64,000 nt of DNA from Escherichia coli (GCF_009931435.1 NZ_CP043414.1), one strand, 5' to 3'; counted from the first letter of the stretch, positions 6,291-18,812 are shown. Numbers and translations: made by a program. The notes: a model not told the origin generated them from the letters alone.

Positions 6291-6554
6291 TGCAATGTAA
6301 ATGGTTCTTTGGTGTTTTTCATGAAGAATGTGATGAAGTGAAAAATTTGCATCACAAACCTGAAAAGAAATCCGTTTACGGTTGCAAGCTCTTTATTCTC
6401 CAAAGCCTTGCGCAGACTGAAGGTAATCGTTTGCGTAAATTCCTTTGTCAAGACCTGTTATCGCACAATGATTCGGTTATACTGTTCGCCGTTGTCCAAC
6501 AGGACCGCCTATAAAGGCCGAAAATTTTATTGTTAGCTGAGTCAGGAGATGCGG

Positions 6555-7808
6555 ATGTTAAAGCGTGAAATGAACATTGCCGATTATGATGCCGAACTGT
6601 GGCAGGCTATGGAGCAGGAAAAAGTACGTCAGGAAGAGCACATCGAACTGATCGCCTCCGAAAACTACACTAGCCCGCGCGTAATGCAGGCGCAGGGTTC
6701 TCAGCTGACCAACAAATATGCTGAAGGTTATCCGGGCAAACGCTACTACGGCGGTTGCGAGTATGTTGATATCGTTGAACAACTGGCGATCGATCGCGCG
6801 AAAGAACTGTTCGGCGCTGACTACGCTAACGTCCAGCCGCACTCCGGCTCCCAGGCGAACTTTGCGGTCTACACCGCGCTGCTGGAACCCGGCGACACCG
6901 TTCTGGGTATGAACCTGGCGCATGGCGGTCACCTGACTCACGGTTCTCCGGTTAACTTCTCCGGTAAACTGTACAACATCGTTCCTTACGGTATCGATGC
7001 TACCGGTCATATCGACTACGCCGATCTGGAAAAACAAGCCAAAGAACACAAGCCGAAAATGATCATCGGTGGCTTCTCTGCATATTCCGGCGTGGTTGAC
7101 TGGGCGAAAATGCGTGAAATCGCTGACAGCATCGGTGCTTACCTGTTCGTTGATATGGCGCACGTTGCGGGACTGGTCGCTGCTGGCGTCTACCCGAACC
7201 CGGTTCCTCATGCTCACGTAGTGACTACCACCACTCACAAAACCCTGGCGGGTCCGCGCGGCGGCCTGATCCTGGCGAAAGGCGGTAGCGAAGAACTGTA
7301 CAAAAAACTGAACTCTGCCGTTTTCCCTGGTGGTCAGGGCGGCCCGTTGATGCACGTAATCGCTGGTAAAGCGGTTGCTCTGAAAGAAGCGATGGAGCCT
7401 GAGTTCAAAACTTACCAACAGCAGGTCGCGAAAAACGCTAAAGCGATGGTAGAAGTATTCCTGGAGCGCGGTTACAAAGTGGTTTCCGGCGGTACTGATA
7501 ACCACCTGTTCCTGGTTGATCTGGTTGATAAAAACCTGACCGGTAAAGAAGCTGACGCCGCTCTGGGCCGTGCTAACATCACCGTCAACAAAAACAGCGT
7601 ACCGAACGATCCGAAGAGCCCGTTTGTAACCTCCGGTATTCGCGTGGGTACTCCGGCGATTACACGTCGTGGCTTTAAAGAAGCCGAAGCGAAAGAACTG
7701 GCTGGCTGGATGTGTGACGTGCTGGACAGCATCAATGATGAAGCCGTTATCGAGCGCATCAAAGGTAAAGTTCTCGACATCTGCGCACGTTATCCGGTTT
7801 ACGCATAA
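6555..7808 (+). CDS. glyA: Serine hydroxymethyltransferase
   Basis: 417 aa from [22 protein letters not shown]; PLP-binding region [14 protein letters not shown] present. Confidence 0.95.
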
Positions 7809-7845
7809 GCGAAACGGTGATTTGCTGACAATGTGCTCGTTGTTC

Positions 7846-7948
7846 ATGCCGAATGCGGCGTGAACGCCTTATCCGGCCTACAAATTATTGCAAATTCAAG
7901 ATATTGCAATCTCCGTGTAGACCTGATAAGCGTAGCGCATCAGGTAAT
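7846..7948. repeat. BIME: two REP elements in inverted orientation
   Basis: gccgaatgcggcgtgaacgccttatccggcctac followed by the inverted copy gtagacctgataagcgtagcgcatcaggta. Confidence 0.7.
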
Positions 7949-8005: not shown

Positions 8006-9199
8006 TCAAATCTGTCGTAACTGCGCCTCAACATACAAATAGCCAATCCCCAGCACCTGCTGTGCGCGGCTTAATTGCCCAAAGCCAATTTGCGTCGCTT
8101 TCACGCTCGGTCCTTCGTCACGGTCGAACGGGTTAAATCCTGTCTGGCGAATAATGGAATTAAGCCAGTTCTCACCAAAGGCGCAGCTGCGACCATACAG
8201 CCAAATCTGATTAATATTGAGGATATTGAGGAAGTTATACAGACTCAAACCAATGGCGTTGGCACTGCGGTCAACCCAGCTGGTGATCCACGGTTCTCCA
8301 CTCTGCCAGGCAGCGATTAACTGCGCGGTAGTCAGTTTTTCAGGATCAAGCTGAGTATTAACCGGTTGTGATTTTAGCCATACCCGCGCCTGTTTTTTTA
8401 ATGCGCTTAACGAGGCGACGGTTTCCAGGCAGCCATAACGTCCACAGTCGCAGGCGACGCCATCCGGATTAACGATGGTGTGACCAATCTGTCCGCTACC
8501 ATACAAACTGCCGCGATAAATTTGCTCGTTAATCACGAACGACGAGCCAATACCGTAATCAACGTTGATCACGCAGAAATCCCGTCCTTGCGAATTATTT
8601 TGCCATTTCTCCGCCAGCGCCAGCATCACGCAGTCATTATCGACCATCACCCGAATGCCCAGCTTCTCTTCCAGCAGATACTTCACCTCAACCGGTGTTG
8701 TCCACGGCGCTTGCGGCATGGTTTGCGACACGCCAGTCACTGGATCAACCTGACCGTGGATAGCCAGCGCCAGGTTGATGGTACGGTCTGACCACAGTTT
8801 ACGATGGCGATGCCAGCATTTTTCGATTTCGGACAACAGAGCCTGCGGTGTCGGTGCATCAATCTGAAAATACTCAAATTCGCCTTTCGGACTTAAACAG
8901 GCATTAGCGACCTGACACTCAATGCTGGTGGGCGTTACGTTCAGGCACAGCGTCCAGTCACCTTCCGGCGCGATCAGCCATGTACCGCTACTGTGCCCGC
9001 GCGTCTGGCTTTCATCGTCGATATTCACCACCCGCTTTTCGCTTTCCAGTTCCTGCAAAATATTACTGACTGCCGGAATTGAAATTTGCGCCAGCCGGGC
9101 CAGCGTTGATTTATTGGCGCGCTTTTGCCGGTACAGCAGTTCCAGAATCACGCATTTGTTATGGTGGCGGATCTGTTGATTGTTAATGCAGGCTCTCAT
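8006..9199 (-). CDS. yphH: ROK-family transcriptional regulator (NagC/Mlc-like)
   Basis: About 397 aa; N-terminal HTH-like segment (STLARLAQISIPAVSNILQEL) plus ROK sugar-kinase-like fold with a CxCGxxGC zinc motif; divergent from yphG. Confidence 0.8.
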   Translation of the reverse strand: MRACINNQQIRHHNKCVILELLYRQKRANKSTLARLAQISIPAVSNILQELESEKRVVNIDDESQTRGHSSGTWLIAPEGDWTLCLNVTPTSIECQVANACLSPKGEFEYFQIDAPTPQALLSEIEKCWHRHRKLWSDRTINLALAIHGQVDPVTGVSQTMPQAPWTTPVEVKYLLEEKLGIRVMVDNDCVMLALAEKWQNNSQGRDFCVINVDYGIGSSFVINEQIYRGSLYGSGQIGHTIVNPDGVACDCGRYGCLETVASLSALKKQARVWLKSQPVNTQLDPEKLTTAQLIAAWQSGEPWITSWVDRSANAIGLSLYNFLNILNINQIWLYGRSCAFGENWLNSIIRQTGFNPFDRDEGPSVKATQIGFGQLSRAQQVLGIGYLYVEAQLRQI

Positions 9200-9316
9200 A
9201 TTCACTAAACCTTGTTTAGTTAATTGCGTGATTATTCCGCGAAAACATTGCCAGATTGTTCAATACACTGCCACAAATCTTTTAATTCAGTATGTCTTGT
9301 TAATATTGAGGGCACC

Positions 9317-12300
9317 ATGACTCCAGTAAAAGTGTGGCAAGAGCGCGTTGAGATCCCGACTTATGAAACAGGTCCGCAGGATATACACCCTATGTTCCTG
9401 GAAAATCGCGTTTATCAGGGATCGTCCGGTGCGGTTTATCCCTACGGCGTGACCGATACGCTGAGCGAGCAGAAAGTCCTGAAATCCTGGCAAGCGGTGT
9501 GGCTGGCAAACGACTATATCAAAGTGATGATCCTGCCGGAGTTGGGCGGTCGGGTGCATCGCGCTTGGGATAAAGTGAAACAGCGCGATTTTGTCTATCA
9601 CAATGAGGTGATTAAACCGGCGCTGGTAGGGCTATTGGGGCCGTGGATTTCGGGCGGGATTGAGTTTAACTGGCCACAACACCATCGCCCGACTACCTTT
9701 ATGCCCGTTGATTTCACCATCGAAGCCCATGAAGACGGCGCACAAACTGTGTGGGTTGGCGAAACGGAGCCGATGCACGGTTTACAGGTGATGACCGGTT
9801 TCACACTACGCCCTGACCGGGCGGCGCTGGAGATTGCCAGCCGCGTCTATAACGGCAATGCCACGCCGCGTCATTTCTTGTGGTGGGCCAACCCGGCAGT
9901 GAAAGGTGGCGAAGGGCATCAGAGCGTTTTCCCGCCGGATGTAACGGCGGTGTTTGATCACGGCAAACGGGCTGTTTCAGCTTTCCCTATCGCTACCGGC
10001 ACTTACTACAAAGTGGACTACTCCGCCGGAGTGGATATTTCTCGCTATAAAAATGTGCCAGTGCCGACTTCGTATATGGCCGAAAAATCGCAGTACGATT
10101 TTGTTGGCGCATGGTGTCACGATGAAGATGGCGGTTTGCTACACGTTGCCAACCACCACATCGCGCCAGGTAAAAAACAGTGGAGCTGGGGACACAGTGA
10201 ATTCGGCCAGGCGTGGGATAAGAGCCTGACCGACAATAACGGCCCGTATATCGAACTGATGACGGGTATTTTTGCCGATAACCAGCCCGATTTTACCTGG
10301 CTTGATGCTTACGAAGAGAAGCGTTTCGAGCAGTATTTCCTGCCTTATCATTCTCTGGGCATGGTGCAAAACGCCTCCCGCGATGCGGTGATTAAACTCC
10401 AGCGTAGTGAGCGGGGGATTGAGTGGGGGCTGTATGCCATCTCCCCGTTGAACGGATACCGGCTGGCGATCCGCGAAATCGGCAGATGCAACGCGTTACT
10501 CGACGATGCCGTGGCTCTGACACCAGCGAACGCCATTCAGGGCGTGTTGCATGGTATCAATCCTGACAGACTAACCATTGAACTCTCCGATACTGACGGC
10601 AATATCGTACTGAGTTATCAGGAACATCAGCCACAAGAGTTGCCGTTGCCGGACGTCGCCAAAGCGCCACTGGCAGCACAAGACATTACTAGTACAGATG
10701 AAGCCTGGTTTATCGGTCAGCATCTGGAGCAATATCATCATGCCAGCCGTTCACCGTTCGATTACTACCTGCGCGGTGTGGCGCTGGATCAGCTGGATTA
10801 TCGCTGTAACCTGGCGTTGGCAATGCTGGAATATAACCGCGCCGATTACCCACAAGCGGTGTCGTATGCCACTCAGGCGCTGAAACGCGCACATGTGCTG
10901 AACAAAAACCCGCAGTGCGGACAGGCGAGTTTGATTCGCGCCAGTGCTTACGAACGTCAGGGGCAATATCAACAAGCCGAAGAGGATTTCTGGCGTGCGG
11001 TCTGGAGCGGAAACAGTAAAGCCGGTGGCTATTATGGTCTGGCACGGCTGGCGGCGCGTAATGGTCACTTCGACGCGGGTCTGGATTTTTGCCAACAAAG
11101 TCTTCGCGCCTGCCCAACCAATCAGGAAGTGCTTTGCCTGCATAACCTGCTGCTGGTGTTAAGTGGTCGTCAGGACAACGCGCGTTTACAGCGAGAGAAG
11201 TTGCTGCGCGATTATCCGCTGAACGCCACCTTTTGGTGGCTGAACTGGTTCGATGGTTGTAGCGAATCTGCCCTCGTACAGTGGCGAGGTCTGTGTCAGG
11301 GACGCGACGTTAACGCCCTGATGACCGCCGGGCAACTGATTAACTGGGGCATGCCCGCTCTGGCGGCAGAGATGCTGAACGCACTGGACTGTCAGCGCAC
11401 GCTACCGCTTTACCTGCAAGCCAGTTTGCTGCCAAAAGCTGAACGCGGAGAACTGGTCGCAAAAGCTATTGATGTCTTCCCGCAGTTTGTCCGTTTCCCT
11501 AATACGCTGGAAGAAGTGGCGGCGCTGGAGAGTATCGAAGAGTGCTGGTTTGCCCGGCATTTACTGGCCTGTTTCTACTACAACAAGCGCAGCTACGGCA
11601 AAGCAATTGCCTTATGGCAACGTTGCGTTGAGATGTCGCCGGAGTTTGCCGACGGCTGGCGTGGGCTGGCAATCCATGCATGGAATAAGCAGCATGATTA
11701 TGAACTGGCCGCGCGTTATCTTGATAGTGCTTATCAGCTTGCGCCGCAGGATGCTCGTCTGCTTTTTGAACGGGATTTGCTGGATAAGCTAACCGGAGCC
11801 GCACCGGAGAAACGACTGGCTCGTCTGGAAAATAATCTGGAAATTGCTCTGAAACGCGACGACATGACCGCAGAACTGCTCAATTTGTGGCATCTCACTG
11901 GTCAGGCAGACAAAGCGGCGGACATTCTCGCCAAGCGCAAATTCCACCCGTGGGAAGGTGGGGAAGGGAAGGTCACCAGCCAGTTTATCCTCAACCAGTT
12001 ATTACGCGCCTGGCAGCATCTTGATGCCAGAGAGCCGCAGCAGGCCAGCGAACTGCTTCATGCCGCGTTGCATTATCCGGAGAATTTAAGCGAAGGCCGT
12101 TTACCGGGGCAAACTGACAACGACATCTGGTTCTGGCAGGCGATATGCGCCAAGGCGCAGGGCGATGAAACTGAAGCGACGCGTTGTTTACGTCTGGCGG
12201 CGACCGGCGATCGCACCATTAACATCCACAGTTATTACAACGATCAGCCGGTTGATTATCTCTTCTGGCAAGGGATGGCGCTGCGATTACTGGGCGAACA

Positions 12301-12598
12301 ACAAACCGCACAGCAACTGTTTAGTGAAATGAAACAGTGGGCACAAGAGATGGCAAAAACCAGTATCGAAGCGGATTTCTTTGCCGTCTCGCAACCTGAC
12401 TTGTTATCGCTGTATGGCGATTTACAACAGCAACATAAAGAAAAATGTCTGATGGTGGCGATGCTGGCGGCTGCGGGATTAGGCGAGATTGCGCAATACG
12501 AATCTGCTCGCGCTGAATTGACGGCGATTAATCCAGCCTGGCCGAAAGCGGCATTATTCACCACCGTGATGCCTTTTATTTTTAGCTACGTTCACTAA
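9317..12598 (+). CDS. yphG: Large conserved protein of unknown function with C-terminal TPR-like repeats
   Basis: 1093 aa from the ATG at 9317 (GAGGG RBS); the ORF track extends the frame to 9224; K-12 synteny. Confidence 0.75.
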   Translation: MTPVKVWQERVEIPTYETGPQDIHPMFLENRVYQGSSGAVYPYGVTDTLSEQKVLKSWQAVWLANDYIKVMILPELGGRVHRAWDKVKQRDFVYHNEVIKPALVGLLGPWISGGIEFNWPQHHRPTTFMPVDFTIEAHEDGAQTVWVGETEPMHGLQVMTGFTLRPDRAALEIASRVYNGNATPRHFLWWANPAVKGGEGHQSVFPPDVTAVFDHGKRAVSAFPIATGTYYKVDYSAGVDISRYKNVPVPTSYMAEKSQYDFVGAWCHDEDGGLLHVANHHIAPGKKQWSWGHSEFGQAWDKSLTDNNGPYIELMTGIFADNQPDFTWLDAYEEKRFEQYFLPYHSLGMVQNASRDAVIKLQRSERGIEWGLYAISPLNGYRLAIREIGRCNALLDDAVALTPANAIQGVLHGINPDRLTIELSDTDGNIVLSYQEHQPQELPLPDVAKAPLAAQDITSTDEAWFIGQHLEQYHHASRSPFDYYLRGVALDQLDYRCNLALAMLEYNRADYPQAVSYATQALKRAHVLNKNPQCGQASLIRASAYERQGQYQQAEEDFWRAVWSGNSKAGGYYGLARLAARNGHFDAGLDFCQQSLRACPTNQEVLCLHNLLLVLSGRQDNARLQREKLLRDYPLNATFWWLNWFDGCSESALVQWRGLCQGRDVNALMTAGQLINWGMPALAAEMLNALDCQRTLPLYLQASLLPKAERGELVAKAIDVFPQFVRFPNTLEEVAALESIEECWFARHLLACFYYNKRSYGKAIALWQRCVEMSPEFADGWRGLAIHAWNKQHDYELAARYLDSAYQLAPQDARLLFERDLLDKLTGAAPEKRLARLENNLEIALKRDDMTAELLNLWHLTGQADKAADILAKRKFHPWEGGEGKVTSQFILNQLLRAWQHLDAREPQQASELLHAALHYPENLSEGRLPGQTDNDIWFWQAICAKAQGDETEATRCLRLAATGDRTINIHSYYNDQPVDYLFWQGMALRLLGEQQTAQQLFSEMKQWAQEMAKTSIEADFFAVSQPDLLSLYGDLQQQHKEKCLMVAMLAAAGLGEIAQYESARAELTAINPAWPKAALFTTVMPFIFSYVH

Positions 12599-12694
12599 AC
12601 ACTATTAACTGTAATATTTGAGCGGCACGCGCTGCCGCTCACGCTCAAATAATTAAAATAAGCCGTTGTAAATAAAAACCCTACAGGAGGCACT

Positions 12695-13678
12695 ATGCCT
12701 AAAAAAATGAGAACAACCCGTAATCTATTATTAATGGCTACGCTATTAGGTAGCACACTATTTGCCAACGCTGCGGAAAAAGAAATGACCATTGGTGCAA
12801 TATACCTTGATACCCAGGGATATTACGCCGGAGTGCGCCAGGGCGTTCAGGATGCGGCAAAAGATTCTTCAGTACAGGTACAGTTAATTGAAACTAACGC
12901 CCAGGGCGATATTTCGAAAGAAAGTACCTTTGTTGATACCCTCGTGGCGCGTAATGTCGATGCCATTATTTTGTCGGCAGTGTCCGAAAATGGCAGTAGC
13001 CGCACCGTTCGCCGCGCCAGTGAGGCGGGTATTCCGGTGATTTGCTACAACACCTGTATTAATCAAAAGGGTGTCGATAAATATGTCTCGGCATATCTGG
13101 TTGGCGATCCGCTGGAATTTGGTAAAAAACTGGGTAACGCTGCCGCAGATTATTTTATTGCCAACAAAATTGACCAGCCGAAAATTGCTGTCATCAATTG
13201 CGAAGCCTTTGAAGTTTGTGTGCAACGACGTAAAGGGTTTGAAGAAGTATTAAAAGCCCGCGTTCCCGGCGCGAAAATTGTCGCTAATCAGGAAGGGACT
13301 GTTTTAGATAAAGCGATTTCTGTTGGTGAAAAACTGATTATCTCCACGCCAGATCTCAACGCCATTATGGGGGAATCGGGTGGAGCGACACTCGGCGCGG
13401 TAAAAGCGGTACGTAATCAAAATCAGGCTGGAAAAATTGCCGTTTTCGGTTCAGATATGACCACTGAAATTGCTCAGGAACTGGAAAATAACCAGGTGCT
13501 GAAAGCGGTAGTGGATATTTCCGGTAAGAAAATGGGCAATGCTGTTTTCGCGCAAACATTGAAGGTTATCAATAAACAAGCCGACGGTGAAAAAGTGATT
13601 CAGGTACCAATCGATCTCTATACCAAAACGGAAGACGGTAAACAGTGGCTGGCAACGCACGTTGATGGTCTGCCCTAA
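12695..13678 (+). CDS. yphF: ABC sugar transporter, periplasmic binding protein
   Basis: 327 aa with signal peptide; AGGAGG RBS upstream; LacI/ribose-binding-protein-like fold inferred from the sequence. Confidence 0.85.
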   Translation: MPKKMRTTRNLLLMATLLGSTLFANAAEKEMTIGAIYLDTQGYYAGVRQGVQDAAKDSSVQVQLIETNAQGDISKESTFVDTLVARNVDAIILSAVSENGSSRTVRRASEAGIPVICYNTCINQKGVDKYVSAYLVGDPLEFGKKLGNAAADYFIANKIDQPKIAVINCEAFEVCVQRRKGFEEVLKARVPGAKIVANQEGTVLDKAISVGEKLIISTPDLNAIMGESGGATLGAVKAVRNQNQAGKIAVFGSDMTTEIAQELENNQVLKAVVDISGKKMGNAVFAQTLKVINKQADGEKVIQVPIDLYTKTEDGKQWLATHVDGLP

Positions 13679-13700
13679 TCGCTGATTCGCAGAGGTCCCT

Positions 13701-15212
13701 ATGTTCACGGCAACAGAGGCAGTTCCGGTAGCAAAAGTGGTGGCAGGAAATAAGCGTTACCCCGGCGTCGTTGCGCTGGATAACGTTAACTTTACGCTCA
13801 ATAAAGGCGAAGTTCGCGCGCTGTTAGGCAAAAACGGTGCGGGAAAATCGACCCTCATTCGAATGCTTACCGGTAGCGAACGTCCGGATAGCGGTGATAT
13901 CTGGATTGGCGAGACGCGACTGGAAGGCGACGAAGCTACGCTGACTCGCCGTGCCGCTGAACTGGGGGTACGCGCGGTTTATCAGGAATTAAGTCTGGTG
14001 GAGGGGCTGACGGTGGCGGAAAATCTCTGCCTCGGTCAGTGGCCCCGCCGCAACGGCATGATTGATTACCTGCAAATGGCGCAGGATGCCCAACGTTGCT
14101 TACAGGCGCTGGGCGTCGATGTTAGCCCTGAACAACTTGTTTCGACACTAAGCCCGGCGCAAAAGCAACTGGTGGAAATTGCGCGGGTGATGAAAGGCGA
14201 GCCGCGCGTGGTCATTCTTGATGAACCTACCAGTTCGCTTGCCAGTACGGAAGTTGAACTGGTGATCAGCGCCGTGAAAAAGATGTCGGCACTGGGCGTG
14301 GCGGTGATTTATGTCAGCCACCGAATGGAAGAAATCCGCCGCATTGCCTCCTGTGCCACCGTCATGCGCGATGGTCAGGTGGCGGGCGATGTGATGCTCG
14401 AAAACACCTCAACCCGTCATATTGTGTCGCTGATGCTCGGGCGCGATCACGTTGATCTTGCACCGGTTGTAGCTCAGGAGATTGCGGACCAGACCGTACT
14501 GGAAGTTCGCGCGTTACGCCACAGACCAAAACTTACGGAGATCAGTTTTTCCCTGCGTCGTGGCGAAGTGCTCGGCATTGCTGGCCTGCTGGGGGCAGGG
14601 CGCAGTGAATTGCTGAAGGCGATTGTTGGACTGGAGACGTATGAACAGGGCGAAATTGTTATCAACGGCGAGAAAATCACGCGCCCCGATTACGGCGACA
14701 TGCTGAAACGCGGCATTGGCTATACGCCAGAAAACCGCAAAGAAGCGGGGATCATTCCCTGGCTGGGCGTTGACGAAAATACGGTACTGACCAATCGGCA
14801 AAAAATCAGCGCCAACGGTGTGCTGCAATGGTCCACCATCCGCCGCCTGACCGAAGAGGTGATGCAGCGGATGACGGTCAAGGCCGCCAGTAGCGAAACG
14901 CCCATCGGCACGCTTTCTGGCGGCAATCAGCAAAAAGTGGTGATCGGTCGTTGGGTCTATGCCGCCAGCCAGATTTTATTGCTCGACGAGCCAACGCGCG
15001 GCGTCGATATCGAAGCCAAACAGCAGATTTACCGTATTGTCCGCGAGCTGGCTGCCGAAGGGAAAAGCGTGGTGTTTATCTCCAGTGAAGTGGAGGAGTT
15101 GCCGCTGGTGTGCGACCGCATCCTGTTATTACAGCACGGTACGTTCTCGCAGGAGTTTCACTCGCCGGTCAATGTGGATGAGCTGATGTCCGCCATTCTG
15201 TCTGTGCACTGA
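13701..15212 (+). CDS. yphE: ABC sugar transporter ATPase (tandem ATP-binding cassettes)
   Basis: 503 aa; Walker A GKNGAGKST, signature LSGGNQQK, Walker B ILLLDEPT. Confidence 0.9.
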   Translation: MFTATEAVPVAKVVAGNKRYPGVVALDNVNFTLNKGEVRALLGKNGAGKSTLIRMLTGSERPDSGDIWIGETRLEGDEATLTRRAAELGVRAVYQELSLVEGLTVAENLCLGQWPRRNGMIDYLQMAQDAQRCLQALGVDVSPEQLVSTLSPAQKQLVEIARVMKGEPRVVILDEPTSSLASTEVELVISAVKKMSALGVAVIYVSHRMEEIRRIASCATVMRDGQVAGDVMLENTSTRHIVSLMLGRDHVDLAPVVAQEIADQTVLEVRALRHRPKLTEISFSLRRGEVLGIAGLLGAGRSELLKAIVGLETYEQGEIVINGEKITRPDYGDMLKRGIGYTPENRKEAGIIPWLGVDENTVLTNRQKISANGVLQWSTIRRLTEEVMQRMTVKAASSETPIGTLSGGNQQKVVIGRWVYAASQILLLDEPTRGVDIEAKQQIYRIVRELAAEGKSVVFISSEVEELPLVCDRILLLQHGTFSQEFHSPVNVDELMSAILSVH

Positions 15213-15236
15213 TGAATTTTACCGAGGAACCTGAAG

Positions 15237-16235
15237 ATGTCTGCTTCGTCATTACCATTGCCGCAGGGCAAGAGCGTCTCGCTCAAACAATTTGTCAGTC
15301 GCCATATTAATGAGATCGGTTTGCTGGTGGTAATCGCCATTCTTTATCTGGTCTTCTCCCTGAATGCGCCTGGCTTTATCTCATTGAATAACCAAATGAA
15401 CGTGCTGCGCGATGCTGCCACCATCGGGATCGCCGCCTGGGCGATGACGCTGATTATTATCTCCGGTGAAATTGATGTCAGCGTTGGACCGATGGTGGCT
15501 TTTGTCTCGGTGTGCCTGGCATTTTTGCTGCAATTTGACGTTCCGCTGGCGATTGCTTGTCTGCTGGTGTTGCTGTTAGGCGCGCTGATGGGGACGCTGG
15601 CCGGCGTGCTGCGCGGCGTGTTTAACGTGCCCAGTTTCGTTGCCACGCTGGGGCTGTGGAGCGCCCTGCGCGGAATGGGGCTGTTTATGACTAACGCCCT
15701 GCCAGTGCCGATTGACGAAAACGAGGTACTGGACTGGCTGGGGGGACAATTTCTCGGTGTGCCAGTATCCGCGCTGATCATGATGGTGTTGTTTGCGCTG
15801 TTTGTGTTCATCAGCCGCAAAACCGCCTTCGGGCGCTCGGTTTTTGCTGTTGGCGGTAATGCGACGGCAGCGCAGTTGTGCGGTATCAACGTTCGTCGGG
15901 TGCGCATTCTTATTTTTACCCTTTCGGGATTATTAGCGGCGGTGACCGGCATTTTGCTGGCAGCTCGCCTCGGTTCTGGTAACGCAGGTGCGGCAAACGG
16001 TCTGGAGTTTGACGTCATCGCTGCGGTCGTGGTCGGCGGTACGGCACTTTCCGGCGGTCGCGGTTCCTTGTTCGGTACGTTGCTTGGTGTGCTGGTGATT
16101 ACGCTAATCGGTAACGGTCTGGTGTTGCTCGGGATTAACTCTTTTTTCCAGCAGGTGGTGCGCGGCGTCATCATCGTGGTGGCGGTTCTGGCGAATATCT
16201 TGCTGACCCAGCGAAGCAGTAAAGCGAAACGCTAA
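15237..16235 (+). CDS. yphD: ABC sugar transporter permease
   Basis: 332 aa, strongly hydrophobic multi-pass protein of the ribose/xylose permease type. Confidence 0.9.
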   Translation: MSASSLPLPQGKSVSLKQFVSRHINEIGLLVVIAILYLVFSLNAPGFISLNNQMNVLRDAATIGIAAWAMTLIIISGEIDVSVGPMVAFVSVCLAFLLQFDVPLAIACLLVLLLGALMGTLAGVLRGVFNVPSFVATLGLWSALRGMGLFMTNALPVPIDENEVLDWLGGQFLGVPVSALIMMVLFALFVFISRKTAFGRSVFAVGGNATAAQLCGINVRRVRILIFTLSGLLAAVTGILLAARLGSGNAGAANGLEFDVIAAVVVGGTALSGGRGSLFGTLLGVLVITLIGNGLVLLGINSFFQQVVRGVIIVVAVLANILLTQRSSKAKR

Positions 16236-16300
16236 ACCTTAACGCCCCTGGCGCGGGTGCGGCAGGGATGAAAATTAATCGTATTGTTAATGAGGGAATT

Positions 16301-17362
16301 ATGAAAACGATGCTGGCAGCTTATTTACCAGGAAATTCGACCGTCGATCTGCGGGAAGTTGCGGTGCCGACACCGGGGATTAACCAGGTACTGATTAAAA
16401 TGAAATCCTCCGGGATTTGCGGAAGCGATGTCCACTATATCTATCATCAACACCGCGCCACAGCGGCGGCTCCCGATAAACCGTTATACCAGGGATTTAT
16501 CAACGGTCATGAACCGTGCGGGCAAATTGTGGCGATGGGGCAAGGTTGTCGCCATTTTAAAGAGGGCGACCGCGTGCTGGTGTATCACATTTCTGGCTGT
16601 GGTTTTTGCCCGAACTGCCGTCGCGGTTTTCCTATCTCTTGTACTGGCGAAGGAAAAGCTGCTTACGGCTGGCAGCGTGACGGCGGTCATGCTGAATATC
16701 TGCTGGCGGAAGAAAAAGATCTGATCCTCCTGCCGGATGCGTTGAGCTACGAAGATGGTGCGTTTATCAGTTGTGGCGTTGGCACAGCGTATGAAGGGAT
16801 TTTGCGTGGCGAAGTTTCCGGCAGTGATAACGTGCTGGTGGTCGGTCTGGGGCCGGTCGGCATGATGGCGATGATGCTGGCGAAAGGTCGCGGTGCAAAA
16901 AGGATCATCGGCGTTGATATGCTGCCGGAACGTCTGGCGATGGCGAAACAGTTAGGGGTGATGGATCATGGTTATTTAGCAACCACTGAAGGTCTGCCGC
17001 AGATTATCGCCGAACTTACCCACGGCGGCGCGGATGTTGCGCTCGATTGTTCCGGTAATGCCGCAGGTCGCTTACTGGCTTTGCAATCCACCGCTGACTG
17101 GGGACGCGTGGTTTACATCGGAGAAACCGGAAAAGTCGAGTTCGAGGTTAGCGCCGACCTGATGCACCATCAACGGCGGATTATTGGCTCCTGGGTGACC
17201 AGTTTGTTCCATATGGAAAAATGTGCCCATGATTTGACTGACTGGAAACTGTGGCCGCGTAACGCCATTACCCACCGCTTCACGCTGGAACAGGCAGGTG
17301 ATGCCTATGCGCTGATGGCGAGCGGCAAATGCGGGAAAGTTGTGATTAACTTCCCGGATTAA
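16301..17362 (+). CDS. yphC: Zn-dependent alcohol/polyol dehydrogenase
   Basis: 353 aa from the ATG at 16301 (GAGGGA RBS); GHEPCG zinc motif and GxGxxG Rossmann motif (VVGLGPVG). Confidence 0.85.
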   Translation: MKTMLAAYLPGNSTVDLREVAVPTPGINQVLIKMKSSGICGSDVHYIYHQHRATAAAPDKPLYQGFINGHEPCGQIVAMGQGCRHFKEGDRVLVYHISGCGFCPNCRRGFPISCTGEGKAAYGWQRDGGHAEYLLAEEKDLILLPDALSYEDGAFISCGVGTAYEGILRGEVSGSDNVLVVGLGPVGMMAMMLAKGRGAKRIIGVDMLPERLAMAKQLGVMDHGYLATTEGLPQIIAELTHGGADVALDCSGNAAGRLLALQSTADWGRVVYIGETGKVEFEVSADLMHHQRRIIGSWVTSLFHMEKCAHDLTDWKLWPRNAITHRFTLEQAGDAYALMASGKCGKVVINFPD

Positions 17363-17373
17363 GGAGTCAGCGG

Positions 17374-18246
17374 ATGACCATCTATACCTTATCTCACGGG
17401 CCGCTAAAGCTGGACGTTTCTGACCGGGGCGGCGTCATCGAAGGCTTCTGGCGTGACGTGACGCCGCTCTTACGTCTCGGTAAAAAAAGCGGTGTGGCAA
17501 CCGATGCCTCTTGTTTTCCGCTGGTGCCGTTTGCAAACCGGGTGAGCGGCAACCATTTTGTCTGGCAGGGGCGTGAGTATCAACTGCAACCGAATATTGA
17601 ATGGGATGCGCACTATCTGCACGGCGACGGCTGGCTGGGCGAGTGGCAATGTGTCTCGCGCAGCGATGATAGCTTGTGTCTGGTGTATGAACATCGCAGC
17701 GGTGTTTATCACTATCGGGTAAGTCAGGCGTTTCATTTAACGGCAGATACGCTGACGGTGACGCTCTCTGTCACCAACCAAGGGACAGAGACGCTGCCAT
17801 TTGGTACCGGCTGGCATCCTTATTTTCCGTTGTCACCACAAACGCGGATTCAGGCGCAGGCGAGCGGTTACTGGCTGGAGCGGGAGCAGTGGCTGGCGGG
17901 GGAGTTTTGCAAGCAGCTACCGCAGCAGCTGGATTTCAACCAGCTCGCGCCGTTGCCGCGCCAGTGGGTAAACAATGGCTTTGCCGGATGGAATGGTCAG
18001 GCCCGCATCGAGCAGCCGCAGGAGGGTTATGCCATCATCATGGAAACGACGCCGCCGGCACCGTGTTATTTCATCTTTGTTTCCGATCCGGCGTTTGATA
18101 AAGGATATGCGTTTGATTTCTTCTGTCTGGAACCGATGAGTCATGCGCCGGATGACCATCATCGCCCGGAAGGAGGTGACCTCATTGCGCTTGCGCCGGG
18201 GGAATCAACAACGTCAGAGATGTCGTTGCGGGTTGCGTTACTGTAA
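17374..18246 (+). CDS. yphB: Aldose 1-epimerase (mutarotase) family protein
   Basis: 290 aa; K-12 synteny and family recognition. Confidence 0.8.
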   Translation: MTIYTLSHGPLKLDVSDRGGVIEGFWRDVTPLLRLGKKSGVATDASCFPLVPFANRVSGNHFVWQGREYQLQPNIEWDAHYLHGDGWLGEWQCVSRSDDSLCLVYEHRSGVYHYRVSQAFHLTADTLTVTLSVTNQGTETLPFGTGWHPYFPLSPQTRIQAQASGYWLEREQWLAGEFCKQLPQQLDFNQLAPLPRQWVNNGFAGWNGQARIEQPQEGYAIIMETTPPAPCYFIFVSDPAFDKGYAFDFFCLEPMSHAPDDHHRPEGGDLIALAPGESTTSEMSLRVALL

Positions 18247-18254
18247 TTTATAAA

Positions 18255-18291
18255 ATGCCGGATAAGGCGTTCACGCCGCATCCGGCATCTT
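18255..18291. repeat. REP element
   Basis: atgccggataaggcgttcacgccgcatccggcat fits the REP consensus. Confidence 0.6.
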
Positions 18292-18293
18292 TC

Positions 18294-18716
18294 CTAACGC
18301 CGATCGAGAGAAATTGCCCCCGGCCCGGTAATTGCCAACAGCAGGAATGCGCCAGCGATACTGACATTCTTCCAGAAATTAATCATATTTGGCCCAACCG
18401 CATCGCCGGTCATATCCCAGTAATGGTGACCAATCACCGCCGTACCCAGCGTGTAGAAAATAAACAGCACCGCCAGCGGACGGGTGAAAAAGCCAAGCAC
18501 GATTAAAATCGCGGCGGGCACTTCCATAACTACCGCAATAATCGCTGCCAGCATCGGCATTGGCGCGCCCAGCGAGGCCATATATTGGACCGTACCGTCA
18601 AAGCCCATCATTTTGGGAAAACCAAAAATAATGAAAATTAAGACCACGGCGATACGGGCAATTAATAACAAAACGGGGCGTGCAACACCAAAATCAAAAT
18701 AACGTAGTGAGTTCAT
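18294..18716 (-). CDS. yphA: DoxX-family inner membrane protein
   Basis: 140 aa from [10 protein letters not shown] (AAGGGA RBS); hydrophobic; the ORF track extends 15 codons further upstream. Confidence 0.8.
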
Positions 18717-18812
18717 AACCAATCCCTTTGCAAGATAATGTGATTTAAACGTAATACACACTCTGGCACCTCGCCACGCCCCAGGAGTTGAGATATTCGC
18801 TAATTATCCTGG

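Follow-up and report, generated by a model that had tools for sequence, protein, structure and literature searches.

An intact sugar-uptake operon of Escherichia coli encodes YphG, a TPR protein with an apparently remodelled mutarotase site

The yph cluster is an intact Escherichia coli sugar-uptake operon. From its analysis within a 64,000-nt stretch of E. coli DNA (GCF_009931435.1, NZ_CP043414.1; the window), we tentatively propose that it is a functional, repressor-controlled monosaccharide-salvage operon in which YphG would serve as the committed cytoplasmic enzyme, acting on a sugar whose identity and conversion we infer.

Gene content and integrity of the yph locus

Genes were identified from the list of open reading frames (ORFs), the RefSeq genes annotated on the best E. 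coli match and Pfam searches:

8006–9199, minus strand: yphH, 397 aa, ROK regulator, divergent from yphG
9317–12598, plus strand: yphG, 1,093 aa, DUF5107 followed by TPR repeats
12695–13678, plus strand: yphF, Peripla_BP_4 protein with a Sec signal peptide
13701–15212, plus strand: yphE, two fused ABC_tran cassettes
15237–16235, plus strand: yphD, BPD_transp_2, single permease subunit
16268–17362, plus strand: yphC, Zn-dependent medium-chain (polyol or sugar) dehydrogenase
17374–18246, plus strand: yphB, Aldose_epim, canonical aldose 1-epimerase (mutarotase)
18294–18716, minus strand: yphA, DoxX-family membrane protein

The ORFs, annotation and Pfam content agree with a preliminary description of this DNA, which had reported the genes that it listed in this order as an intact carbohydrate-type set; the extent that it gave, 8006–18761, is right for the yph genes but also takes in yphA, which it left undescribed. 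Its statement that the reading frames are intact is borne out: every frame has the length of the annotated RefSeq gene of the best E. coli match, and all eight genes give dN/dS values of 0.008–0.086 relative to E. albertii at dS 0.2–0.5 (0.012 for yphD and 0.033 for yphH). At least 80% of the locus was found in 5,370 of 5,426 complete E. coli genomes (99%). The literature searched assigns no substrate to the YphFED transporter and no activity to YphG, as the same description had held; YphH was termed uncharacterised in papers of 2014 and 2022, yphFED a 'putative sugar ABC transporter' in a paper of 2023, and YphF has been detected by published proteomics (PMC8753852).

YphG joins a mutarotase-like domain to a TPR solenoid

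Three parts can be distinguished in YphG:

9317–10351, plus strand: codons 1–345, DUF5107, aldose-1-epimerase fold with an apparently remodelled active site
10352–10624, plus strand: codons 346–436, small all-beta (Ig-like) linker domain
10694–12595, plus strand: codons 460–1093, about 34 helices forming a TPR-type solenoid

The protein belongs to the DUF5107/TPR family, having a DUF5107 domain (PF17128; 186 bits against a gathering cut-off of 24.4) followed by TPR repeats (TPR_16, 57.7 bits against 32.7; TPR_2, 46.3 against 27; TPR_14, above its cut-off). The preliminary description had recognised the C-terminal repeats but missed the N-terminal domain, which is the most informative part. In the predicted structure (pLDDT 96.1, pTM 0.94), this domain adopts the galactose-mutarotase beta-supersandwich fold, and its best structural matches are free-standing aldose 1-epimerases, not glycoside hydrolase (GH) catalytic domains; in Foldseek, the solenoid matches the TPR superhelices of OGT, Ctr9, Ski3 and SPINDLY. 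Pfam returned zero matches of YphG to GH or polysaccharide lyase (PL) families, and neither sequence nor fold revealed a GH or PL catalytic domain, which leaves unsupported the earlier suggestion that YphG serves as a scaffold or processes glycans by means of a GH or lyase fold.

The relationship of YphG to mutarotases is detectable only from profile to profile (hhalign probability 91–96%); its N-terminal domain has no Aldose_epim (PF01263) match at E ≤ 0.01, and hhalign against YphB alone found nothing. In the profile alignments, E313, which is invariant in 110 sequences, aligns with the catalytic base (E253 in YphB; Glu304 in Lactococcus lactis GalM), and the invariant N192 occupies in both alignments the position of the catalytic-acid His (H148 in YphB; His170 in L. 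lactis GalM; His175 in E. coli GalM). The near-invariant H122 and H123 lie in the loop equivalent to that of the first His (H83 in YphB; His96 in L. lactis GalM), where the two alignments differ by 2–3 residues; residues were mapped by profile alignment rather than from superposed coordinates, so that positions in this loop hold to within ±2–3 residues. Mapped in this way, the mutarotase site of YphG appears remodelled, with the Glu and the His loop kept and the second His changed to Asn, a feature that is new here.

About 30 polar residues are near-invariant in the family (110 sequences, identity down to 25%). Invariant acidic residues are E64, D85, E116, D208, D306, E313, D325, E333 and E880, and the solenoid contributes Q472, Y483, D491, W563, R782, E818 and E880 to the residues that are near-invariant family-wide. 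Conserved non-helical loops also interrupt the solenoid: FHPWEGGEG (876–884), NLSEGRLPGQTDND (923–936), YYNDQP (973–978) and DFFAVSQPD (1020–1028).

Compared with the aldose 1-epimerases (PF01263; GalM, YeaD, YihR and YphB), YphG differs in carrying DUF5107, in the invariant Asn, in a conserved 39-residue insertion (269–307) and in being fused to a beta-sandwich and a TPR stretch of about 630 residues. The presence of a distinct gene for a canonical mutarotase at the same locus makes it unlikely that YphG is simply another such enzyme. Among the closest known proteins, BDI_1685 of Parabacteroides distasonis (PDB 5cd6) was deposited by structural genomics as a 'TPR-domain containing protein' without a functional name, and no paper mentioning it was found in the literature searched; at 575 aa, it is half the length of YphG, with a short TPR part and 21% identity.

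Genomic neighbourhoods of the YphG family

The YphG family is very large and uncharacterised: 3,889 matching clusters at 50% identity were found, with relatives in at least 594 GTDB species representatives, a size that is new here. Gene context was surveyed in 80 genomes of four phyla, with loci taken from Proteobacteria, from Bacteroidota, from Firmicutes and from Bifidobacterium, and in none of them, whatever the phylum, does YphG or its homologue have a signal peptide. A monosaccharide-class importer of any type is encoded at 53 of the 80 loci, an AraC or ROK regulator at 61 and a separate mutarotase at 15. Sugar porters of the MFS class stand near YphG at 41 loci, 26 of them co-directional and within 100 nt; this partner scores 400–418 bits against the XylE model and matches XylE structures at E 3e-95, and the partner binding protein of Firmicutes is AraF-like (E 8e-28). 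The conserved core is regulator, YphG, importer and mutarotase, and YphC together with the ABC system marks the E. coli-type variant; the preliminary description had put the ABC transporter and the dehydrogenase on a par with the other genes, and comparative context recasts them as an E. coli-type addition to this core. Full-length YphG remains about 40% identical across phyla despite the differing partners.

Exo-glycosidases recur in these neighbourhoods, with GH2 at 30 of 80 loci, GH35 at 8, and GH95, GH97 and GH31 elsewhere. The GH2 neighbours match PDB 8U01 (E 6e-121), whose group is the GH2_20 subfamily of beta-galactosidases (PMC12243196). At Bacteroidota loci, the neighbouring GH2 and GH35 enzymes have signal peptides and YphG has none. 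In some Firmicutes and Bifidobacterium, YphG is translationally coupled to a cytoplasmic GH2. One Enterobacteriaceae locus also encodes GH53 and GH35 enzymes, LacY and a porin.

ABC systems of the oligosaccharide type (CUT1) occur at some Firmicute loci, and one Photobacterium locus has a GPH-type transporter beside YphG, observations that count against a monosaccharide substrate.

Importer and accessory enzymes

YphFED has the composition of a CUT2 system, namely a binding protein with a signal peptide (MPKKMRTTRNLLLMATLLGSTLFANA/AE), an ATPase with two fused cassettes and a permease of the BPD_transp_2 type (YphF, Peripla_BP_4, 117 bits; YphE, two ABC_tran stretches, 198 bits; YphD, 126 bits). 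By these sequence features, YphF is classed as the periplasmic solute-binding protein of a predicted CUT2 (monosaccharide-class) ABC importer. Its best solved relative, 5hsg (E 2e-24), was deposited as a putative ABC transporter protein without a functional name; binding proteins for ribose, galactofuranose, allose and galactose come next. The three-part architecture is that of the E. coli CUT2 importers RbsBAC, AlsBAC, MglBAC, XylFGH and YtfQRT-YjfF, whose binding proteins are matched at E 1e-11 to 1e-17, but unlike these importers YphFED reaches no equivalog cut-off, and for YphF none was reached in NCBIfam.

YphC matches ADH_N, ADH_zinc_N and Glu_dehyd_C in Pfam, and its translation contains the catalytic Cys/His/Glu, the structural Cys4 cluster and GxGxxG (motifs GICGSD, GHEPCG, C-GFC-PNC...C and GLGPVG), as in Zn-dependent medium-chain polyol dehydrogenases. 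Among proteins of solved structure, it is closest to alcohol, xylitol, threonine and sorbitol dehydrogenases, and the equivalog cut-offs for Tdh, IolM, GatD and IdnD were all missed. The gene is present in the ABC-type loci that reach that far (L006 and L012–L015) and absent from MFS-type loci. YphB is an aldose 1-epimerase (PF01263, 177 bits against a cut-off of 27) that is essentially identical to PDB 3nre (E 5e-200), and its His/His/Glu triad, H83, H148 and E253, shows no variation among 17 aligned YphG-linked mutarotases.

YphH and candidate regulatory elements

Like the sugar-responsive ROK repressors of the NagC, Mlc and XylR type, YphH combines a ROK domain (113 bits) with an N-terminal DNA-binding domain: a MarR-type helix-turn-helix at residues 16–53 gives a weak match just below its cut-off (20.9 bits against 24.6), and the Mlc model aligns from residue 9. 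NagC and Mlc were considered as orthologues and rejected, since the scores lie far under the NCBIfam cut-offs (112 bits against 650 and 109 against 530, respectively). YphH has been placed on a separate long branch among ROK proteins (PMC4288165). A divergent ROK gene adjoins the YphG gene at all 14 proteobacterial loci, and YphH is presumed to be the repressor of the yph operon. Five elements were delineated:

9200–9224, unstranded: Box A, candidate operator palindrome, ATTCACTAAAC-ctt-GTTTAGTTAAT, abutting the yphH start codon
9223–9244, unstranded: Box B, conserved element, ATTGCGTGA-N7-GCGMAA
9264–9269, plus strand: TACACT hexamer, likely −10 element of the yphG promoter, conserved as TA.ACT
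12591–12614, unstranded: Box A', second copy of Box A, TTCACTAAAC-acta-TTAACTGTAA, overlapping the yphG stop codon upstream of yphF
12619–12641, plus strand: conserved GC-rich hairpin between yphG and yphF, TGAGCGGC-N7-GCCGCTCA

Box A is an inverted repeat with 11-nt arms that are 91% complementary, and it recurs beyond E. coli in Serratia, Klebsiella, Limnobaculum and Aeromonas, although the proteins share only 57–74% identity; it is a putative binding site of YphH. Box A' fits the pattern with three mismatches. Since 8 of 100 shuffled sequences yielded that number of pattern matches, it is the conservation of the block in E. albertii, Enterobacter and Klebsiella that supports Box A'. A conserved palindrome in two copies, upstream of yphG and of yphF, is new here.

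Box B has a single exact match in the window, and the match count observed at up to two mismatches was reached in 0 of 100 shuffles; the core A.TGCGTGA is retained in 80% or more of the 19 intergenic regions that were aligned, and in other genera the element is a clearer palindrome, ATTGCG-N9-CGCAAT. The right half of Box B, read from the sequence, departs from the CRP consensus. The column block TA.ACTG is conserved across the 19 regions and contains TACACT, the likely −10 element; no good −35 hexamer was seen 17 nt upstream, and a simple promoter scan made no call there. The hairpin between yphG and yphF, whose stem is invariant and loop variable in five Enterobacteriaceae, has a folding energy of −16 kcal/mol with a modest z-score of −2.0. 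It lacks a T-run and is thus not a classical terminator; RNA stability or partial termination are candidate roles.

A proposed function for YphG and its alternatives

In the proposed operon, YphH would act on Box A and Box B before yphG and on the second Box A before yphF, and would be released by the sugar or by a product. YphFED, assigned by family to the CUT2 class, would bring the sugar in, a step for which a XylE-like proton symporter would substitute in sister clusters. The sugar would then be bound in the remodelled pocket of YphG, in which Glu313 and the His122/His123 loop are kept, the ring-oxygen His is replaced by Asn192 and the 39-residue insertion is added; conserved acidic loops of the solenoid probably supply the rest of this pocket. 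YphG would act on the anomeric centre of the sugar or on an adjacent position, yielding a sugar that central pathways already handle, with YphB supplying or removing the needed anomer; GalM, XylM, RhaM and FucU handle anomers in other sugar operons. YphC, which is confined to the ABC variant, probably connects the pathway with a polyol or an oxidised version of this sugar. Judged by gene neighbourhood only, the sugar is probably galactose- or arabinose-like, and context points to its release by the beta-galactosidases of other organisms. As E. coli is already fully equipped to use galactose and arabinose, yph would be superfluous if it simply served one of these two sugars. No kinase, isomerase or aldolase is conserved beside YphG in the loci compared, from which we assume that the product is handled elsewhere.

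Two features count against an enzymatic YphG: we know of no precedent for a monosaccharide-converting enzyme of 1,093 residues with a 630-residue TPR solenoid, and TPR solenoids usually bind proteins or peptides. The His-to-Asn change in the pocket could also mean sugar binding without catalysis.

It is possible, if unlikely, that YphG is a new cytoplasmic glycoside hydrolase or phosphorylase acting on an imported disaccharide or small glycoside, such as a galactoside remnant, with YphB equilibrating the anomer released. The recurrent exo-glycosidases, the coupling to cytoplasmic GH2, the CUT1-type ABC genes by one Firmicute homologue, the Photobacterium transporter and the many invariant acidic residues all fit such an enzyme, as does the order of a beta-sandwich and a helical domain, found also in GH15, GH65, GH94 and GH95; mutarotases are known to accompany glycosidases, as with YihQ and YihR (PMC5902678). 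However, the coupled importers are monosaccharide-class in three phyla (XylE-like porters, YphF-type and AraF-type CUT2 systems), GH and PL matches are absent by sequence, and the helical part is a true TPR solenoid and not an (alpha/alpha)6 barrel.

We consider it improbable that YphG is a non-enzymatic cytoplasmic sensor or scaffold, whose pocket would bind the sugar and whose TPR part would bind the regulator, the transporter or a metabolic enzyme, tuning uptake or expression. The loss of the second catalytic His, the protein-binding superhelices that are the closest analogues of the C-terminal 630 residues and the lack of a conserved downstream catabolic enzyme would suit this role. Yet the partners vary by phylum (ROK or AraC, MFS or ABC) while YphG stays similar over its full length, which a small-molecule substrate explains better than a changing protein partner; moreover, ROK and AraC regulators already contain sugar-binding domains, the catalytic Glu and the polar residues are near-invariant, and a separate mutarotase makes most sense beside an anomer-specific enzyme.

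The preliminary reading of YphG as a polymer-acting glycan hydrolase or lyase, or as a passive scaffold, is scarcely tenable: none of the 80 homologues carries a signal peptide, so that polymers lie out of reach of the protein, the adjacent monosaccharide-class importers argue against action on one, lyase and GH matches span only 200–300 residues and score below true mutarotases, and E. coli, like the minimal clusters, has no genes for an outer-membrane or surface glycan system. Equally hard to credit is a cryptic, decaying remnant without present function, for which speak the lack of a known phenotype or inducer, a yphG split into 810 and 244 aa in one E. coli genome (L011) and shortened YphG clusters in the protein database, but against which stand eight intact genes with low dN/dS, near-universal presence in E. 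coli and operators conserved across families.

Relation to known sugar operons

The monosaccharide-salvage reading places yph beside the gal, xyl (Lactococcus), rha and fuc operons, which comprise a regulator, an importer, a mutarotase and the first catabolic enzyme. The yph operon likewise has a sugar-responsive type of regulator, a monosaccharide-class importer and a mutarotase, with YphG in the position of the committed enzyme; it differs in that the enzyme type would be novel and no kinase or aldolase follows. It also resembles the yih (sulfoquinovose) cluster, another set of y-genes in which a dedicated mutarotase and an unusual first enzyme accompany a transporter and a regulator, and whose substrate and enzymes, unlike those of yph, are established; YihR has been compared with YphB (PMC5902678).

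YphA (DoxX, 73 bits) is encoded on the strand opposite to yphG–yphB and, in Klebsiella and several other Enterobacteriaceae, its gene lies at the opposite end of the cluster, between glyA and yphH; we regard it as a neighbour of the yph system, not as an established member.

The yph cluster is intact and under purifying selection

The yph genes form a chromosomal cluster flanked by glyA and hcaD, in which the open reading frame (ORF) list, Pfam and the RefSeq annotation of the best Escherichia coli match agree.

Genes of the yph cluster (window coordinates, strand)
8006–9199, minus strand: yphH, ROK regulator, 397 aa
9317–12598, plus strand: yphG, DUF5107 plus TPR, 1093 aa
12695–13678, plus strand: yphF, Peripla_BP_4, signal peptide detected
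13701–15212, plus strand: yphE, two ABC cassettes
15237–16235, plus strand: yphD, permease
16268–17362, plus strand: yphC, Zn medium-chain dehydrogenase with visible GxGxxG motif and Zn ligands
17374–18246, plus strand: yphB, aldose 1-epimerase, PDB 3nre at E 5e-200
18294–18716, minus strand: yphA, DoxX family

The preliminary description had reported an intact gene set at 8006–18761, and this is confirmed by the ORF list, RefSeq annotation, Pfam and low dN/dS. Codon-level comparison with E. albertii gave dN/dS values of 0.008–0.086 for all eight genes (dS 0.22–0.54), showing that the frames are under purifying selection; pseudogenisation, which had been put forward as a reason to abandon the claim, was looked for, and every gene proved intact. 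The genes named in the preliminary description are all present, but yphA, which lies silently inside the range, was left undescribed, and the C-terminal TPR repeats of YphG were correctly recognized while its N-terminal DUF5107 domain was overlooked. At least 80% of the locus was found in 5,370 of 5,426 complete E. coli genomes. A decaying remnant is scarcely credible for a locus that is near-universal in E. coli and has such low dN/dS.

Family-level tests placed YphB among mutarotases, YphFED among CUT2 importers, YphC among Zn dehydrogenases and YphH among ROK regulators, with none of them reaching any orthologue-level cut-off. The locus is already known and annotated in E. coli, and belongs to the familiar class of operons for sugar import under repressor control. 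Within this otherwise ordinary operon, YphG represents a sizeable and coherent orphan enzyme family that lends itself to experiment.

Searchable full text, which leaves subscription journals mostly outside, yielded no functional study of yph genes, DUF5107 or 5CD6, so the earlier statement that neither a substrate nor a YphG activity is established holds within the openly searchable literature. PMC4288165 counts YphH as a third ROK repressor in E. coli, still uncharacterised, and as late as 2022 it figured among the transcription factors without an assigned function (PMC9308461); a 2023 review (PMC10305011) gives yphFED as a putative ABC transporter for sugars. In the searched papers, yphG is mentioned only as a marker for PCR or in lists of expression data, and DUF5107 in a single unrelated paper. 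A levoglucosan proteomics signal of YphF was not taken as evidence of specificity, being a general carbon-source effect common to many other transporters, and name-alike text matches ('YpHCA' yields, the Bacillus YphC GTPase, PHB yields) were discarded. The cluster, carried by virtually every E. coli genome, is among the remaining sugar-type gene sets of this model organism that lack a substrate, and our analysis shifts the question from the transporter to YphG.

YphG carries a remodelled mutarotase domain

Residues 1–490 of YphG, searched against 1.8 billion representative proteins, matched 3,889 clusters at E ≤1e-3 and 878 at ≤1e-30, most of them sharing the same architecture of about 1,100 residues. 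By sequence, an unannotated structural-genomics protein, 5cd6 (BDI_1685 of Parabacteroides distasonis), is the sole relative with a solved structure for the N-terminal part. Final structure prediction used an alignment of 110 full-length family sequences with identity down to 25% and gave a model with a mean pLDDT of 96.1 and a pTM of 0.94, superseding an earlier model built with 32 close homologues, in which N-domain pLDDT was below 50 over the conserved motifs.

Segments of the predicted YphG model
Residues 1–345: beta-supersandwich
Residues 346–436: small beta-sandwich
Residues 460–1093: TPR-type solenoid of about 34 helices, with conserved non-helical loops in between

In fold comparison of the N-domain, the mutarotase-like accessory domains of GH38, GH36, GH2, GH94 and GH65 and several lyases scored at most 17. 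Foldseek agreed and matched the C-terminal part to protein-binding TPR superhelices (for example OGT, Ctr9 and Ski3). When compared with the mutarotase family, YphG passed the fold test and failed the sequence test and one catalytic-residue test; it failed every GH and PL test. YphG is built on a mutarotase scaffold and is not to be classed as a mutarotase or a glycoside hydrolase. No signal peptide was detected in YphG or in 80 examined homologues, in which the conserved N-terminus begins directly, and YphG is cytoplasmic. The preliminary description had suggested a scaffold or glycan-processing role and a search for glycoside hydrolase or lyase folds; with the signal peptide missing and the lyase and GH matches weak, an enzyme acting on polymers is very improbable.

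To locate the active site, we used a profile of 17 mutarotases encoded beside YphG homologues, which was needed because hhalign of the YphG family against the single YphB sequence gave no match. Residues H83, H148 and E253 (YphB numbering), which we take to be the counterparts of the GalM His/His/Glu catalytic set, are invariant in all 17. Profile–profile alignment matched the YphG N-domain to this profile with a probability of 91–96% and E values of 1e-6 to 3e-9; residue equivalences derived from it are approximate. YphG E313, invariant in 110 of 110 sequences, aligned with the catalytic Glu; the near-invariant H122/H123 lie in the first-His loop, with a mapping uncertain by 2–3 residues; and the position of the second catalytic His is occupied by the invariant N192. 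An insertion at residues 269–307 contains near-invariant G285, K286, K287, W291, W300 and D306. Because E313 is kept, N192 stands in for the second His and the insertion is present, the N-domain is, as judged from these alignments, a remodelled and not a canonical mutarotase. The His-to-Asn change, together with the TPR analogies, could also fit a non-catalytic sensor or scaffold, but the partners of YphG vary and its Glu is invariant, making such a role improbable.

A 324–332 aa protein adjoins the YphG homologue in Paenibacillus and Ruminiclostridium (L039 12303–13301, L053 12318–13292 and L048 6853–7851, in locus coordinates), its start overlapping the YphG stop in both Paenibacillus loci. 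It has weak matches to DUF4432, Aldose_epim and even DUF5107, and may represent an evolutionary intermediate between a canonical mutarotase and the YphG N-domain.

YphG belongs to a conserved sugar-import module

Scanning a single genome for each GTDB species yielded at least 594 YphG relatives. We analysed the best 80 of these loci, from Proteobacteria, Bacteroidota, Firmicutes and Bifidobacterium, by ORF calling, clustering of neighbours up to four genes away and Pfam naming of the clusters.

Genes within four genes of YphG among the best 80 loci
Any monosaccharide-class importer: 53
AraC-type regulator: 47
Sugar-porter MFS: 41, of which 26 are co-directional and at most 100 nt from YphG, often 3–20 nt
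GH2: 30
Separate mutarotase: 15
ROK regulator: 14, these being all 14 proteobacterial loci
GH35: 8
Sulfatase: 8
GDSL esterase: 7
GH95: 5
GH97: 4
GH31: 4

Pfam analysis of 30 YphG neighbours returned glycosidases, esterases, sulfatases and regulators, and no conserved kinase, isomerase or aldolase. The regulator, importer, YphG and mutarotase form a conserved core module in a glycosidase context. The E. coli-type cluster, ABC system and YphC included, also occurs in Klebsiella. A variant lacking both the ABC system and the dehydrogenase is found in Aeromonas, Serratia, Limnobaculum and one Enterobacteriaceae group; there YphG is accompanied by a divergent ROK gene, an MFS sugar porter resembling XylE and a mutarotase resembling YphB. 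Two Budvicia species carry one variant each, apparently in the same chromosomal slot, as judged by flanking ORFs alike in size and strand. A pairing of YphC and YphG as galactose dehydrogenase and lactonase feeding the dgo pathway was rejected, as YphC lies outside the conserved core.

In the window and in L004, L006, L014, L020, L024 and L007, the DoxX gene yphA is linked to the cluster on varying sides: it follows yphB in E. coli (18294–18716), whereas Klebsiella and further Enterobacteriaceae carry it between glyA and yphH, and in Limnobaculum a DoxX gene is found two genes upstream of the ROK gene although the flanks differ.

Several features of the neighbours bear on the sugar. Against the XylE model the MFS partner of YphG scored 400–418 bits, and its match to XylE structures had an E value of 3e-95; the CUT2 binding protein beside Firmicute YphG homologues is closest to E. 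coli AraF (E 8e-28). The GH2 neighbours matched PDB 8U01, which belongs to the GH2_20 beta-galactosidases (PMC12243196), at E 6e-121. In Bacteroidota, GH2/GH35 neighbours have signal peptides or lipoprotein signals and YphG has none; in Firmicutes and Bifidobacterium both are cytoplasmic; and in one Enterobacteriaceae locus GH53, GH35, LacY and a porin adjoin the YphG module. The recurrent picture is of a sugar freed in a beta-galactosidase context, taken up by a monosaccharide-class importer and met by cytoplasmic YphG, with a separate mutarotase nearby.

Since a role in the use of plain galactose or arabinose would be redundant in E. coli, we expect the substrate to be related to these sugars but modified or otherwise unusual. 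The same direction is indicated, only as a lead, by the pockets of the MFS partner and the Firmicute binding protein, which are partly conserved and partly changed relative to XylE and AraF, with residue roles taken from the structures of these two proteins, and hint at a pentose- or hexose-like but different ligand.

In the marine Flavobacteriia loci (L026, L041, L043, L045, L065, L073, L074) the order MFS, GDSL esterase, secreted GH2, YphG is strict, with a preceding sulfatase in six of seven and further sulfatases and a second GH2 downstream in four of these; it looks like a locus for utilisation of a sulfated, acetylated galactan.

Conserved palindromes in the yph operon

Candidate control elements of the yph cluster (window coordinates)
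9200–9224: Box A, a palindrome abutting the yphH start within the 117-nt yphH–yphG region
9223–9244: Box B, a second element between yphH and yphG
9264–9269: TA.ACT hexamer, between yphH and yphG
12591–12614: second Box A copy, overlapping the yphG stop codon, in the yphG–yphF spacer
12619–12641: GC-rich hairpin TGAGCGGC-N7-GCCGCTCA, 3′ of the second Box A copy

Across 19 intergenic regions, spanning E. coli to Aeromonas, Box A, Box B and the hexamer are all kept. Within the window Box B is matched exactly once, and none of the shuffled sequences gave as many matches as were observed; it was rejected as a CRP site because, although the left half-site is similar, the right half misfits in every species. 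E. albertii, Enterobacter and Klebsiella share the second Box A copy and the hairpin, and across Enterobacteriaceae the stem is invariant and the loop variable. Lacking a T-run, the hairpin was rejected as a classical terminator; together the two elements suggest that the transporter genes are separately controlled or that their RNA is processed. From position and conservation, we infer that YphH would bind Box A, Box B and the second Box A copy. A simple promoter scan gave no candidate above shuffled background, and no convincing terminator was found within the yph operon.

A candidate route for sugar salvage

Taken as a composite, the model that we tentatively favour, at a confidence just short of even, runs as follows. 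YphH would repress at Box A and Box B and be released by the sugar; YphFED would bring in a monosaccharide-sized, probably galactose- or arabinose-like sugar; YphG would perform a one-step conversion at or near the anomeric centre, giving a sugar handled elsewhere; YphB would supply or remove the required anomer; and, in the ABC-type variant, YphC may provide a link to a polyol or oxidised form. An alternative, a cytoplasmic glycosidase or phosphorylase acting on a small glycoside, draws support from neighbouring glycosidases and from certain transporters of the oligosaccharide type, but we regard it as unlikely given the monosaccharide importer class and a YphG without a GH fold.

In a more far-reaching reading, YphG could be the founder of an unrecognised cytoplasmic carbohydrate-converting class and the regulator–importer–YphG–mutarotase module a missed sugar-salvage route, a joint proposal that we hold as possible, at somewhat less than even confidence. 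If so, a mutarotase fold would have been rebuilt for new free-sugar chemistry, with the Glu kept, His replaced by Asn, a 39-residue insert and capping by TPR loops, and the salvage route downstream of beta-galactosidases would be shared, in at least four phyla, by bacteria from the gut, from soil and from the sea. The family comprises thousands of sequence clusters, in Bacteroides, Prevotella, Lachnospiraceae, Paenibacillus, Bifidobacterium and marine Flavobacteriia, hosts in which YphG would stand between periplasmic beta-galactosidases and cytoplasmic metabolism. Once identified, its reaction would supply a missing step for models of plant- and host-glycan breakdown and gut cross-feeding, a function for a large domain of unknown function and an example of the mutarotase fold adapted to other chemistry.

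Further observations on the locus and family

Relative to the closest E. coli genome (2020CK-00188), the yph locus is a mosaic, with yphD, yphC, yphB and yphA 100% identical and yphE, yphH and yphG at 99.9%, 98.5% and 97.96% identity, respectively. This looks like a recombination breakpoint within the operon of an otherwise divergent lineage; the whole locus is matched at ≥99% by 1 of 5,426 genomes and at 95–99% by most.

In E. coli SCPM-O-B-8794, yphG is broken into 810- and 244-aa ORFs (L011 2379–5657), and the protein database holds large clusters of shortened YphG (900, 741, 692 and 643 aa), some of which may merely be fragments from contig ends; yphG may thus have been inactivated now and then in particular lineages. 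Two rare family members, P0238 (1399 aa) and P0258 (1417 aa), carry additional C-terminal domains: one has an endonuclease/exonuclease/phosphatase (EEP) domain, the other a carbohydrate-binding domain resembling CBM9; as clues to function, these fusions were set aside as too rare for interpretation. Next to the cluster, a 429-aa ORF at 6558–7847 (minus strand) runs antisense to nearly all of glyA (6549–7808, plus strand) and most likely arises mechanically from codon usage.
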